This document shows, piece after piece, positions 28,601 to 34,600 of a DNA stretch of 64,000 bases (position 1 is the stretch's first letter; every line of letters starts with the position of its first letter). The DNA comes from a plasmid. Position numbers: made by a program. The DNA lies in assembly GCF_057098645.1 (NCBI RefSeq), contig NZ_JBXSPU010000003.1, one strand, 5' to 3'.

Positions 28601-31600
28601 TGGGTATTAAACGGCTTTCTCATAAAAAAACTGAACGCTTAAAAACTGAATTTATCGGGCTGATTGATACTGTACGGCCAGCACTAAACGACAGTAATAA
28701 ACTCACCGAATTAATTTTCGACGGACAACATTCCAATTTATTTACGAACATCAGCAGCACTTCCATCACAAAGACAACGGAAAGTGTAAAGATCACTCTA
28801 GATGAAGCAAAACTCCAGCTTTTATTAAGCCTTCTGAATGATGAAAATACTGCTATCATCATTCCAAAATCTAAGGTTACAGAACTGCATGAAATTCGTG
28901 ACCTGTTAACAAGTGAGTAGAATGCTAAGGACCGTTTATGGACAAGATTGCACAGTTTACTGTAATTAATACTTATAACGATCTACTTATTACAAAAGGC
29001 ACACTCGATCGCAACATTGAAGAGATCAAGGCTGGAAAGCGTTTTGATCATTTTGAAGAAGGGCACGATCAATACGTACAGAAGGTAACTGACGCTTTAC
29101 AGCTCGTGGAGGCTCGACTGGAGAACCTTAAAAAATGAAACATTCTCTTTTTTTTACTCAGGATGGTTATTTACTGCCATCATCCGTAAAGCCTATCTAC
29201 GGTAAAGATGGACACTATTACGCCGTTATCACCCGTGAGTGTTTTGAATGCGGAGGGACTGGAAAGATTGCGAACGCCGTCTGTGTGACATGCAATGGCT
29301 CCAAAACGTCTCCAGCCACAGAGGAAAAGCTGGTACTGAAAGAGTGCATTGAATTCCTTGAAACTATCCCGGAACTTCGCTGCAATCCCGATCTTGAAGC
29401 CTGGAAACGTAGGCACAGCGAGCAGTTAGCATTGCTGCAAGCTGACAATTCTAAGTTTGCAGCAAGCATTGCACAGCAGTTAAACAACAATCTCTTTTTA
29501 ACAGTCCGTCAGTTGGAGTCTTTCTACTCGACATACCAGCCTGTTTCTAAAGCTTTTTCAGAAAACGCCGGTTTTCCAATTGAACATTCTTTCAACATTG
29601 GTGATGTAGTTAGTTTTGATATTATTTTGGGTATCCGGAATTTCTGGTTGATAAAATGTCAAAGATGTAAAGAAGAAAATCTTTCTCAGCGGATTATCTG
29701 ATTGATCCTCTTCAGCCTACTCTACTGCCAATTTTCTGTTTCCACCTTCGCCTGAGTCTTCATAGCGATGCTGACTAGGGAGGACAGCGAGAGCTGGGCA
29801 AGCGTCAAAGCGGTTCTGGTTCATGCGCAATCCGGACACCTGCACAACATTCCTCTTGTAAGAAACCGATCAAATTCTCTAGGTGCCCATACTCGGGTAT
29901 ACAGACAATCGTGCGGCTATGTTTCTCCTGCCGGATCAGCCCTACCTTGGCCATGCGCGCAAGGTGATGTGATAGCGTCGAAGCAGGAATACCCAGCCCC
30001 TTCTGGATATCTCCGACCGAAGCCCCATCATGGCCAGCTTTGACCAGAAAGCGGAACACGGACAGTCGGTGACTATTCCCTAGCTCAGCTAAGCTGGCTG
30101 CAACCTTTTCGTGATCCATAGCACGCCCCAATAATTCGATGTTTCTAGAATTATAGTTGACAGGTCGGATAAACGCAAGTAGGCTGCGTACATCATTTCG
30201 ATAAAACTAGAAATATAGGAGTAATATTGAATGTCACCTCAACTCCAAGACGCTCTAGGCATGTTCGCCTTTCTCGCTATCGAGCTATCGGTTTTATTCA
30301 TTGGCATTAGCTTGCTGGTCGGAGTTCTTCAACGTCACATCCCACCATCCAAGGTGGAAGCGTTACTGACTTCCAGTGGGAAGCGAGGCTATTTTCTTGC
30401 TGCTGGTTTAGGAGCTATAACGCCCTTCTGTAGTTGCTCGACTATCCCCATGTTGAAAGGGTTGATTCAGGCACGGGCCGGTTTTGGGCCGATGATGGTG
30501 TTTCTTTTCACATCTCCGTTGCTGAATCCTATCGTCGTCGGCCTGCTGGTTGCCACGTTTGGATGGACACTTACTGCTATCTATGTGCTCGCCGCTTTGG
30601 TGGTCGCGGTAGGTGCCGGATGGCTGCTTCACACGCTTGGCTTCGAGCGTTATGTGCGCCGGACGGCGACACAAGAGAGCAGTGGATGTAGTTCATCAGC
30701 AAGCCCGTGCAGTGCTACATCGACCGCATCGAGTTGCGGCACCAACAGCTGCGACACCACTCCGAAGACGGCTTCTTGCGGGGCTGATAGGAAGACAACA
30801 GTCTCTACGTCTAGCGAATGCTGTGACAGTCAACCCACTGTCACGGTTAAGAAAGAAGGGAAGTACAATGGTGTGTGGCGGGAAGCTTAGTCGGACTTTA
30901 TCGATGTGTTGCCTTACCTGCTCATCGCTATTGCGATTGGCAGCGTGATCTATGGTTTCATGCCCACTGACTTATTGGAGCAGTATGCAGGCCCAGATAA
31001 TCCCTTTGCCATTCCAGTTGCCGCTGTCATCGGCGTGCCGTTGTATATTCGCGCTGAAGCCGTCATACCTCTGGCAGCGGCTCTGATGGCCAAAGGCGTG
31101 GGTGCCGGGACGGTGCTTGCGTTGATCATCGGCAGTGCCGGAGCCAGCCTGACTGAGCTCATTCTGTTGCGCTCTTTGTTCACGCTGAAGCTTTTAGCGG
31201 CGTTTTTAGCAGTCATTTTTGCTATGGCGATGATTGCCGGTTACGCCACCTACCTGTTTTTCTGATCAAGGCGGGAGATGATTAATTCGTTAAGCCTTCC
31301 TGGTTACCAGTTGGTGGATTCTGATGAGCAGAATGAAGACATACATTTTCGGCTTGAAGCACCTACACCAGTAGCCTGCGAGGGGTGCTGCGTGCAGGGT
31401 GAGTTCGTGCGGTTCGGCAAGCGTGATGTTCCCTATCGTGACCTGCCCATCCACGGCAAGCGGGTCACCCTCTGGGTAGTTCGTCGCCGGTACACCTGCC
31501 GGGCCTGCAAGACCACCTTCAGGCCCCAGCTACCGGAGATGGTGGACGGCTTCCGCATGACGCTGCGGTTGCATGAGTACGTGGAGAAGGAAGCCTTCAA

Positions 31601-34600
31601 TCACCCCTACGCCTACGTGGCTGATACCACTTATCCATAGTATAATGAATAATAGTAGTTAAAGTAGTTTAGGAGGGGGATATTAGGGAGGTTTTTACTT
31701 TAAATAAAAATTAACAAGGTCTATAATTTATAGTAGTTAAAGTGGTTAAAGAGAGGTGGGAGGATTTTTTATTTCTCCCTGAATCAAAATAAAGAAAGAA
31801 GGAATCGAATTGTTAAAACAAAAGGAACTAATGGCAAGGGTTAAGGAACTTGTCCAGTCAGATGAACGAATATCTGCTTGTATGATGTATGGCTCTTTTA
31901 CAAAAGGAGAGGGAGATCAATACTCTGATATAGAATATTACGTTTTTCTAAAAGATGATACAATTTCCACCTTTGATTCAGCAAAATGGCTAAATGAAGT
32001 CGCTTCCTACACTTTACTCTATCAAAATGAGTACGGTACGGAAGTAGTAATTTTTGAAAATCTAATACGTGGTGAATTTCATTTCCTTTCCGAAAACGAA
32101 ATGAATATTATTCCTTCATTCAAAGAATCAGGCTACATTCCTGACACAAAAGCAATGTTTATTTATGATGAAACAGGACAACTAGAATTGTATTTATCAG
32201 AGTTGGAAGGTCCGGGACCAAATAGACTTACAGAAGAAAACGTAAATTTTTTATTGAATAATTTTTCCAACCTATGGTTAATGGGGATTAATGTTCTTAA
32301 AAGAGGGGAAAATGCACGTTCACTGGAACTTTTATCTCAATTACAAAAAAATATACTACAACTCATTCGAATTGCGGAAGAAAATGCCGATAATTGGTTT
32401 AATATGACAAAGAATCTTGAAAAAGAAATTAGACCTGAAAACTATGAAAAGTTTAAAAAGACTACTGCCCGATTAAATGAATTAGAACTATATGAAGCCT
32501 ATAAGAACTCTTTGCTTCTCGTTATGGAACTTCGAAATCTCGTTGAAAAACAGTATCAATTAACCATTAGCGATGATTTTTTAGGCAAACTGTTTAATTA
32601 TATGAACGAATAAATAAAAAGCCTGTATCTCAAGTGATAACTAAGATACAGGCTTTAATTGTTATTTACTTTAAATACATGTTCTCAAAGTGAAAGTATT
32701 GATTTTAATGGATTTTTAATAGTTTACTCTTGATAATATTGCGGGCCTGGACGAGAAGACGGTACGCGACATTTTCAACGCCCGCGCCGAATTCCTGGGG
32801 CGCTGGCACCGCTTCGAGACGCCCCGCATTCTCGGCATTGACGAGTTGTACCTGAACAAGCGCTACCGCTGCATCCTGACCAACATCGAGGAGAGGACCC
32901 TGCTCGACCTGCTGGCCACCCGCCGTCAGGACGTGATGACCAACTACCTGATGAAGATGAAAGACCGGCAGAAGGTCAAGATCGTCAGCATGGACATGTG
33001 GAATCCCTACCGAGCAGCGGTCAAGGCGGTGCTGCCACAGGCCCGCATCGTGGTCGATAAGTTCCATGTGGTGCGCATGGCCAACGATGCCCTGGAGAAG
33101 GTGCGCAAGGGCCTCAGGAAGGAGCTGATGCCCTCCCAGAGCCGAACCCTCAAGGGTGACCGGAAAATCCTGCTGAAACGCGCTCACGAAGTCTCAAACC
33201 GGGAACGCCTCATCATGGAGACCTGGACCGGCGCATTCCCACAACTGCTGGCCGCCTACGAGCACAAGGAACGTTTCTACGGCATCTGGGACGCTACCAC
33301 ACGGCCCCAGGCAGAAGCCGCCCTGGACGAGTGGATAGCCACCATCCCGAAGGGCCAGAAGGAAGTCTGGAGCGATCTGGTCAGGGCTGTAGGCAACTGG
33401 CGCGAAGAGATCATGACCTACTTCGAGACGGACATGCCCGTCACCAACGCTTACACGGAGTCCATCAACCGACTGGCCAAGGACAAGAACCGTGAAGGAC
33501 GTGGTTACTCCTTCGAGGTGATGCGGGCACGAATGCTCTACACCACGAAGCACAAGAAGAAGGCCCCGACCGCGAAGGTCTCTCCGTTCTACAAGAAAAC
33601 CATCGGTTACGGACTGCCGGACTTCGCAGAGGAACTCAACTACGGGGTCGATCTATCAACCATCTGATAATGGTATCAGGTTGGTGGGGTAAAGGTGCCC
33701 CATCAACCATTAAATCCGTATACCCATTATTTTTACAGAAGTGCGAGCTGCGTTTTCAAAAGGTTCTCATAGCTATTTTTTTACTTTTACAGGCAAAAAG
33801 CAGAATGATGGATTCGCGTTGACTGGTAATGTTCAGGATCACGTTTTATTGGGGCATAGCTATCATCTTTCGGGAAAAGTGAGAAAGATCCACTACTTTG
33901 ACTCAGTGCCCTACGCATTACTGACTGTGTTTAAATTAACAGCATAGCCTGGTGTCTAGTGACCGGAACTCCCAAATACAGGCCGTTTTTACATTAGCCA
34001 CCGGCTTTCTGCACTGTCGTGCCGACTCACTCACGTCAAATCTGTTGCTCACGCATCGGGTTTTTACCCGGTTTTACACTCCGAAAATAAGCCGATTTAT
34101 TTTAAATTCAACACCCGTTATTAACTAATCTTTTAAATTAAAAATGATAATCTTATTAATTATATTTTTTAATTTTTTGTCTCTTCTTAACATATAGGTT
34201 AAGGAGATTTTGTTAAAACGGAGTGATATATGCAAAATGATCTTGGACTTGGGTTCATCCGCAAGTCAGCAAGAACGTCAGCAAAAATTATTTCCCGAAA
34301 AGTTACTTTTCCGCTCGATGACTTGGATAATGCAAAGCTAACGCTAACTGGCCTACAGTGTCATCCATCCTGCCGTTTTCCATTTTACCAGCTGTCTATG
34401 CTTATCCATAACCAACTCGCTGAGCACGGCGTCATTTCTGCCGATGAAAACGCACCGTTCACTGTATCCATAAGCATTCACGAGTGGCTGAGTCGTGCCA
34501 GAGTGGCATTTATTGATTATCACGGTCTTCGTAATAGCGATAAGACGGTCATGATCACACGCGCTCATCTGGAAGAATTGCTTACTTACTTGTCTACGAC

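Follow-up and report, generated by a model that had tools for sequence, protein, structure and literature searches.

The region at 29629 to 33725 of the 64-kb window (the whole plasmid stretch of 64,000 nucleotides that was analyzed) is identified by its sequence as ISEc89a, an already published, nested two-level mobile element, here in a tet(X4)-type IncHI1 plasmid backbone. We put the probability that ISEc89a is a derivative of Tn6260 nested in ISPst2, with the four-step history proposed below, at roughly 0.85. Direct observation covers the anatomy of the element, its exact junctions, an empty site, and the parental elements in intact form, as well as copies of the composite elsewhere. Li et al. 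2021 (Antibiotics 10:1411, PMC8615141) gave the name ISEc89a to ISPst2 with lnu(G), and described lnu(G) within the ISPst2 tnpA gene, a 924-bp tnpA 3′ fragment, and 8-bp direct repeats. They found it at "various sites," mainly on IncFIA(HI1)/HI1A/HI1B hybrid plasmids of Enterobacteriaceae, and ascribed the entry of lnu(G) to "an unknown genetic event" (PMC8615141). The window element shows no structural difference from ISEc89a, and its lnu(G) module lies at the "a" position; the 924-bp 3′ pseudogene annotated by RefSeq in an identical plasmid fits the published description (PMC8615141). Beyond that account, the insert can be resolved as a derivative of Tn6260 that retains both ends but has lost tnpABC, which explains the "unknown genetic event." It shows how a Gram-negative insertion sequence came to carry a Gram-positive Tn554-family transposon as its cargo, although the added value is small.

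Approximately 70 plasmids carry the ISEc89a structure at 100% identity, most of them at the same IncHI1 site. The window was 100% identical to ISEc89a-type plasmids including pT16R-1, pT28R-1, and pYPE10-190k-tetX4, and two plasmids that match it at 100% are described in PMC12115866. ISEc89a is a routine, RefSeq-annotated part of tet(X4)-type IncHI1 plasmids, for which there are many reports from pigs, poultry, pets, and people. The outer element and the gene that it interrupts are made up as follows.

29135-29628, plus strand: zinc-finger-like gene, 5′ part (codons 1-164), an IncHI1 backbone gene interrupted by the element
29621-29628: target duplication ATTATTTT, 8 bp, left copy
29629-33725: ISL3-family element, 4,097 bp
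29629-29652, plus strand: ISPst2 left inverted repeat GGGTATCCGGAATTTCTGGTTGAT, the IRL tabulated for ISPst2a/b (PMC6305408)
29805-30119, minus strand: arsR, ArsR/SmtB-family regulator, 104 amino acids (NCBIfam NF033788, E = 9e-14)
30231-31265, plus strand: permease passenger gene, yraQ-like, COG0701, with TPFCSCS motif; a pseudogene with an in-frame TAG at 30888-30890
31278-31630, plus strand: ISPst2 tnpA 5′ fragment, codons 1-117 and two further nt, collinear with positions 4271 to 4623 of the stretch containing the intact ISPst2 element
32743-33667, plus strand: ISPst2 tnpA 3′ fragment, from the remainder of codon 118 through the stop, including the catalytic region of the ISL3 transposase; collinear with positions 4624 to 5548 of the stretch containing the intact element
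33702-33725, minus strand: ISPst2 right inverted repeat GGGTATACGGATTTAATGGTTGAT (reverse complement), the IRR tabulated for ISPst2a/b (PMC6305408)
33726-33733: target duplication ATTATTTT, 8 bp, right copy
33734-33947, plus strand: zinc-finger-like gene, 3′ part (codons 165-235), continuing beyond the element

On sequence comparison, the outer element is ISPst2, carrying arsR, the permease gene, and tnpA. The preliminary description had proposed an ISL3-family element with passenger genes, bounded by imperfect 24-bp inverted repeats and a perfect 8-bp duplication, and this was borne out on re-examination by the repeats, the ISL3 model score given below, and the two passengers. The repeats agree at 20 of 24 positions, the inverted-repeat pattern occurs only twice in the 64-kb window (shuffles expect 0), and the two copies of ATTATTTT are identical at 8/8 positions. 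Removal of the insert leaves 4,097 − 1,112 = 2,985 bp, the length of ISPst2, and this remainder shares 99.7% identity with an intact element in the IncX1 plasmid NZ_CP022061, where the target duplication is TTTAAAAA. Many E. coli chromosomes and plasmids carry intact ISPst2 that is 100% identical around the insert site. The window copy shares with ISPst2 and ISPst2a,b (ISL3 family; Pseudomonas stutzeri and Arthrobacter plasmids) identical 24-bp inverted repeats, the 2,985-bp length once the insert is removed, the ArsR and permease passengers, and 8-bp AT-rich duplications, but differs in having tnpA broken at codon 118 and a W220* change in the permease. ISPpu12, also an ISL3 element with passenger genes, shows ∼92% nucleotide identity across the transposase region tested and is a distinct element; it occurs widely among large plasmids of enterobacteria and could supply transposase in trans. 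A search of the 64-kb window with the inverted-repeat pattern identified no second ISPst2 copy that could act as a local transposase source.

Both passengers lie between the left inverted repeat and the transposase gene, as first described. The ArsR product scored 51 bits against NF033788, slightly below the 55-bit cut-off, and is annotated as WP_000349485.1 in the intact ISPst2 record and in another record. The TPFCSCS-motif permease gene is present but broken, a feature missed earlier: G to A at 30889 relative to the intact element creates the in-frame stop (W220*), RefSeq lists a pseudogene with "internal stop," and the unbroken 344-amino-acid version occurs in the intact ISPst2 record and one further record. 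Its matches to NCBIfam copper/zinc and arsenic efflux families were weak, every one below cut-off.

The empty site was found in many IncHI1 plasmids, for example, pO111_1 (NC_013365), where the joined flanks form one contiguous piece (99.9% identity) with a single copy of ATTATTTT, annotated as a 235-amino-acid "zinc finger-like domain-containing protein." Joining 29135-29628 to 33734-33947 restores a 235-amino-acid protein with one substitution (K139E) relative to pO111_1, so that the reading frame can indeed be rebuilt across the junction as had been claimed. The interrupted gene had been called a zinc-ribbon gene entered at its 3′ end; a zinc-finger-like gene is interrupted, but after codon 164 of 235, ∼70% along and not at the extreme 3′ end. 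The target gene product matched no NCBIfam family.

The tnpA gene of the window is split and is a nonfunctional gene. RefSeq records the 5′ fragment as a pseudogene without the C terminus and, in an identical plasmid, the 3′ fragment as a 924-bp pseudogene without the N terminus. The preliminary description recognized two transposase fragments but placed them at 31278-31640 and 32723-33667; the ends at 31640 and 32723 arose because the open reading frames continue into the insert, where the N-terminal frame ends after three codons. The halves belong to one gene, being exactly contiguous in the intact element, and when rejoined encode 425 amino acids with one substitution relative to WP_000610829. 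No transposase sequence has been lost, contrary to the earlier expectation of a deleted segment that could be measured. An intact orthologue one amino acid from the rejoined halves scored 299 bits on the ISL3 model NF033550 (cut-off, 180).

Tn6260, a Tn554-family transposon discovered in Enterococcus faecalis, has the gene order tnpA-tnpB-tnpC-lnu(G). The insert in ISPst2 tnpA contains the following features.

31631-32742, plus strand: mini-Tn6260, a Tn554-family derivative that retains both ends but has lost tnpA, tnpB, and tnpC, 1,112 bp
31757-31765, plus strand: deletion junction with 9-bp microhomology TGGGAGGAT, 3,633 bp lost
31810-32613, plus strand: lnu(G), lincosamide nucleotidyltransferase, 267 amino acids, TTG start (NCBIfam NF033182)
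32618-32656, no strand assigned: 16-pair hairpin directly after lnu(G), a probable terminator (consensus scan)
32737-32742, plus strand: TATTGC, the variable hexanucleotide that closes mini-Tn6260 on the right, following the constant end ...CTCTTGATAA

The insert has a G+C content of 30.6%, against 54.5% for the remainder of the element. Its source, which the preliminary description left to be sought, is Tn6260: the left 136 bp (31630-31765) is 100% identical to positions 241 to 376, and the right 986 bp (31757-32742) 99.7% identical to positions 4001 to 4986, of a stretch of Providencia pPROV252-1 containing a full Tn6260-like element. That element is 4,745 bp with the hexanucleotide counted and has tnpA, tnpB, and tnpC; these Tn554-family genes (tnpA and tnpB encoding tyrosine recombinases) are all three absent from the window. 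The ends of the insert, its boundaries being ambiguous by one C, correspond to the nucleotide with Tn6260 ends at unrelated sites, including a Tn3-family transposase gene, an Exiguobacterium plasmid, and Enterococcus radC/JAB-domain genes; the ends were taken from several independent insertions (including those in Providencia and Exiguobacterium) and not from the type sequence KX470419. Insertion was precise: the target ACCAC/GGGCC is otherwise unchanged, nothing having been duplicated or lost. After the constant end CTCTTGATAA, each of four contexts shows its own hexanucleotide: TATTGC in the window, ATTTGC in pPROV252-1, TGGATT in pT270A, and GACGCG in another copy. Tn554 has a variable hexanucleotide at one junction that is carried from the previous site (PMC3261861).

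Taken on these matches, the insert is a non-autonomous Tn6260 derivative, not a complete Tn554-family member. It shares with Tn6260 (Tn554 family; E. faecalis E531) lnu(G), the left and right termini, and the carried hexanucleotide, and neither has inverted repeats or a target duplication; it differs in lacking tnpA, tnpB, and tnpC (3,633 bp gone) and in lying inside an ISL3 transposase gene rather than radC. The ∼1.1-kb AT-rich lnu module noted at the outset does split a single transposase gene and is of Gram-positive origin, but it is a discrete transposon derivative rather than a loose captured gene. An integron cassette and an IS200/IS605-type or rolling-circle capture were also considered for the insert and rejected; it has no attC-like end and its ends match Tn6260.

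The Lnu(G) product scored 619 bits on NF033182 over its full length (1-267; cut-off, 525), in line with the lincosamide nucleotidyltransferase with a TTG start reported first, and AMRFinder gave Lnu(G) at 100% identity on identical plasmids. The gene had also been credited with its own terminator; the 16-pair hairpin does follow it, but was called by the terminator scan on the minus strand only; it could plausibly serve as the terminator of the gene. The deletion junction joins the Tn6260 tnpA ribosome-binding site to sequence 53 nt upstream of lnu(G), and the fused Tn6260 promoter may drive expression of the gene. Because the susceptibility of Enterobacterales to lincosamides is poor to begin with, lnu(G) is probably of limited clinical importance in such a host; lincosamide resistance from the window copy is predicted.

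The proposed history would begin with the integration of Tn6260 between codons 117 and 118 of ISPst2 tnpA by its own Tn554-type machinery, which would leave no duplication and bring in the hexanucleotide of the previous site (TATTGC). A 3,633-bp deletion between two copies of TGGGAGGAT would then have removed tnpA, tnpB, and tnpC, so that the 135-bp left end, which includes the promoter and ribosome-binding region of tnpA, became fused to sequence 53 nt ahead of lnu(G). The composite, unable to make its own ISL3 transposase, would most likely have moved in trans on its intact inverted repeats, by means of an intact ISPst2 or an ISPpu12-type transposase, and duplicated ATTATTTT on landing in the zinc-finger-like gene. 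The permease gene would have gained W220* afterwards, in the window lineage.

We infer that integration preceded deletion and that mobilization occurred in trans. An integron-associated lnu(G) remnant in the IncX4 plasmid NZ_CP122873 has a right junction, TATTGC/GGGCC, identical to that of ISEc89a and keeps 155 bp of Tn6260 upstream sequence missing from ISEc89a; a longer Tn6260 was therefore probably once present at the ISEc89a insert site. This remnant could alternatively stem from recombination with another Tn6260 copy. The insert-then-delete order leans on this one longer remnant because the proposed ancestor, ISPst2 with full-length Tn6260 at codon 118, was not found in the plasmid collection: when a chimera of ISPst2 flank, the left end of Tn6260, and 300 bp from the start of tnpA was used as the query, none of the records spanned both flank and tnpA, and the best matches started at the Tn6260 end.

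The opposite order is considered unlikely. A mini-Tn6260 that had lost tnpABC beforehand may have left its earlier site as a circle and entered ISPst2 tnpA, with TnpA/B/C provided in trans by a full-length Tn6260 or by some other Tn554-family element sharing the cell. The mini-element retains both ends together with the carried hexanucleotide, the parts that a Tn554-type substrate needs, and the full-length ancestor was not found in ISPst2 in the plasmid collection. ISEc89b (e.g., pT270A, NZ_MW298662) likewise has ISPst2 with a tnpABC-less Tn6260 derivative in tnpA, a second mini-derivative inserted elsewhere in the same gene, 164 bp upstream of the ISEc89a insertion (between window positions 31466 and 31467), with the hexanucleotide TGGATT, the target duplication TCACTTTA, and another deletion junction that keeps ∼180 bp more upstream of lnu(G). 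However, the 155 bp of extra sequence in NZ_CP122873 is most easily explained by a longer element having come first, and no mini-element with the same deletion junction was found outside ISPst2 in 50 sampled rows of 183 records.

A split transposase gene need not mean an immobile element. The preliminary description suggested that capture of the resistance gene probably inactivated the element and fixed it in place; on that view, copies elsewhere would reflect plasmid spread alone. The split of tnpA, with its N-terminal frame closing three codons into the insert, the sharing of one IncHI1 site by most of the ∼70 identical matches, and the lack of a second ISPst2 copy in the window are consistent with this view, which we nevertheless consider improbable, and for the element as a family it is already contradicted by copies with different 8-bp duplications. 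Two plasmids of E. coli from Belgian pigs, the IncHI1-type NZ_CP122649, whose zinc-finger-like site is empty, and NZ_MW800634, carry the composite in identical form, lnu junctions included, at another locus with the duplication AATATTTC, and the Salmonella plasmid pLSP40/13-2 carries it at GATTTATC (PMC11047700). Composite copies at other sites could alternatively have come from a resident intact ISPst2 recombining with an lnu(G)-bearing copy.

Entry of lnu(G) and its flanks into tnpA by illegitimate recombination, or by an event unrelated to Tn6260 ends, would fit the mechanism left open in the published account (PMC8615141) but is scarcely credible, because random breakage would not yield both transposon termini, which match to the nucleotide those at independent sites, in a target that gained and lost nothing and with a Tn554-like 6-nt variable sequence at one end.

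With Tn554-type integration of Tn6260 preferred as the event that placed lnu(G), a broader reading can be offered tentatively, at somewhat less than even odds. ISPst2 tnpA may be a recurrent secondary target, with at least two independent insertions 164 bp apart, each of which then lost tnpABC independently at short repeats resembling ribosome-binding sites to give a doubly non-autonomous nested element. If so, the inner part could be mobilized by Tn554-family recombinases and the outer part by ISL3 transposase, both in trans, and the nested element would be a bridge bringing a Gram-positive resistance transposon into Enterobacterales.

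The structure at 29629-33725, an ISPst2 element of the ISL3 family whose tnpA gene is split by an insert bearing lnu(G), has already been published as ISEc89a (PMC8615141). Plasmids matching the window at 100% have been described, in comparison with R27, as having acquired "an ISPst2-flanked transposon carrying lnu(G)" (PMC12115866), and the junction region is present at ≥80% coverage in 44 of 5,426 complete E. coli genomes. The element itself is therefore known. What the present analysis adds is limited to how lnu(G) entered, where the deletion junctions lie, and a correction, namely, that the element has not been immobilised.

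Features of ISEc89a in the window
29621-29628 and 33726-33733: perfect 8-bp direct repeats ATTATTTT flanking the element
29629-33725: element, 4,097 bp
31278-31630: 5′ fragment of tnpA
31631-32742: insert, 1,112 bp, 30.6% G+C (ISPst2, 54.5%; backbone, 43%)
31699-31727: promoter-like site, consensus scan only
31810-32613: lnu(G), 619 bits (cut-off, 525)
32743-33667: 3′ fragment of tnpA

The 24-bp inverted repeats at the element ends are imperfect, matching at 20 of 24 positions; their pattern was found twice in the whole window, both times at the element ends, and not at all in shuffled sequence. These repeats and the 8-bp duplication held on re-examination, as did the proposal in the preliminary description that the interrupted frame can be rebuilt across the junction. 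Joining 29135-29628 to 33734-33947 restored a 235-aa zinc-finger-like protein with one substitution, placing the insertion after codon 164 of 235. The empty site was identified in many IncHI1 plasmids, including pO111_1, where the joined flanks form a single unbroken stretch (99.9% identity) and the target gene encodes a 235-aa "zinc finger-like domain-containing protein." The sole substitution relative to the pO111_1 allele was K139E at codon 139 (window 29549-29551), and no NCBIfam family matched this gene.

Without the AT-rich insert, the element is 2,985 bp and 99.7% identical to an intact, uninterrupted copy in the IncX1 plasmid NZ_CP022061, which has its own flanking duplication (TTTAAAAA) and codes for an HTH/ArsR regulator, a 344-aa permease, and a 425-aa ISL3 transposase. 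The inverted repeats and length are the same as those listed for ISPst2a/b (PMC6305408), which belongs to the ISL3 family and has genes for ArsR and a permease as passengers. Against NCBIfam models, the transposase scored 299 bits for ISL3 (cut-off, 180), the regulator 51 bits for ArsR/SmtB, slightly below the 55-bit cut-off, and the permease gave only sub-threshold matches to metal-efflux families. The two transposase fragments belong to one gene. In the intact element they directly adjoin each other; the target there reads ACCAC|GGGCC, with no bases lost or gained. Once rejoined, the fragments encode 425 aa with one substitution (V183M); the deleted segment anticipated in the preliminary description does not exist. 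In the window, a G-to-A change at 30889 gives the permease gene an in-frame stop at 30888-30890 (TGG to TAG, W220*). RefSeq likewise records this internal stop and labels the permease and both transposase halves as pseudogenes. W220* is present in this IncHI1 lineage, and the permease is full length (344 aa) in the intact ISPst2 and in copies of the composite at another site. The passenger function seems dispensable in this lineage.

The lnu(G) module was matched to a full Tn6260-like transposon with the gene order tnpA-tnpB-tnpC-lnu(G) in the Providencia plasmid pPROV252-1. The first 136 bp of the insert shared 100% identity with the left end of this transposon and the last 986 bp shared 99.7% identity with its right part. 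A 9-bp stretch (TGGGAGGAT) is common to both matches. The insert is therefore Tn6260 that has lost 3,633 bp internally, the deletion having occurred at a 9-bp microhomology. All three transposition genes are gone and both termini are retained. The left breakpoint lies at the tnpA start codon of Tn6260, and therefore the left-end promoter and ribosome-binding region lies 53 nt upstream of lnu(G). Within the Tn6260 left end, TAGTAGTTAAAGT(A/G)GTT also occurs twice in direct orientation (window 31655-31680 and 31733-31758), each time followed by a purine-rich GGAGG-like run; these might be recombinase-binding repeats of a Tn554-family end.

The left terminus of the insert (TTATCCATAG...) and its right terminus (...CTCTTGATAA) are also where Tn6260-type sequence gives way to flanking DNA at unrelated sites. 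Among these sites are a transposase gene of the Tn3 family, a plasmid of Exiguobacterium, and, in Enterococcus, radC/JAB-domain genes. Immediately 3′ of the constant right end are six variable bases, TATTGC in the window and ATTTGC, TGGATT, or GACGCG elsewhere. Tn554 has neither terminal repeats nor a target duplication, and the hexanucleotide at one of its ends represents the former target (PMC3261861), a signature that the insert shares. Entry of Tn6260 by a Tn554-type route would thus explain what Li et al. termed "an unknown genetic event" (PMC8615141). In the full Tn6260-type copy from Exiguobacterium (NZ_CP101463), GACGCG occurs at both junctions (217-222 and 4981-4986 of locus L005), resembling a 6-bp duplication, whereas in the other copies examined the junction sequences differ between the two sides.

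The order of events is suggested by an lnu(G) remnant in the IncX4 plasmid NZ_CP122873 (2830-5007 of locus L009), located after the aadA cassette of a class 1 integron. Its right junction in ISPst2 tnpA is the same as that of ISEc89a (TATTGC followed by GGGCC), and it retains 155 bp of Tn6260 upstream of lnu(G) that are missing from ISEc89a; a longer Tn6260 would therefore formerly have occupied the same position. We infer that this longer element entered the tnpA site first and that the ISEc89a deletion followed. The NZ_CP122873 element has been named an "ISEc89a remnant" in the literature; since it keeps the 155 bp that ISEc89a lacks, its sequence identifies it as a sibling, not a descendant. 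A full-length ancestor, ISPst2 with complete Tn6260 at the tnpA site, would read GATACCAC-TTATCCATAG, then GGGAGGATGTGAAGG ∼130 bp on, and was not found among the plasmids searched. The 8 bases immediately before the IRL of the remnant, ATTATTTT, are also those of the window duplication. In the remnant they are presumably native to the integron, following the aadA cassette, and their occurrence in both places is probably coincidental, a matter of AT-rich target choice.

ISEc89b of pT270A (NZ_MW298662; 3501-4801 of locus L006) carries a second, independent Tn6260 lacking tnpABC in the same ISPst2 tnpA. It is inserted 164 bp upstream of the site used in the window, with the hexanucleotide TGGATT rather than TATTGC, and its deletion junction, which differs from that of ISEc89a, lies at an imperfect 17-nt repeat that looks like a ribosome-binding site. 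Together with a tnpA hit in Tn6321 reported in Proteus, ISEc89b suggests that Tn6260 repeatedly inserts into transposase genes of Gram-negative elements.

The suggestion that capture of lnu(G) had fixed the element in place is contradicted by its distribution. An identical composite with the same lnu(G) junctions was found at another locus, flanked by the duplication AATATTTC, in NZ_MW800634 and NZ_CP122649, the latter with an empty zinc-finger-like site, and in a Salmonella plasmid the composite sits at GATTTATC (PMC11047700). As its own tnpA is split, the composite was most likely moved by transposase from another copy; alternatively, an intact ISPst2 already resident at the other sites could have recombined with a copy bearing lnu(G). 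Regarding transposase supplied by another copy, intact ISPst2 with 100% identity around the insertion point was identified in many E. coli, on chromosomes as well as plasmids, and large plasmids commonly carry ISPpu12 (∼92% identical).
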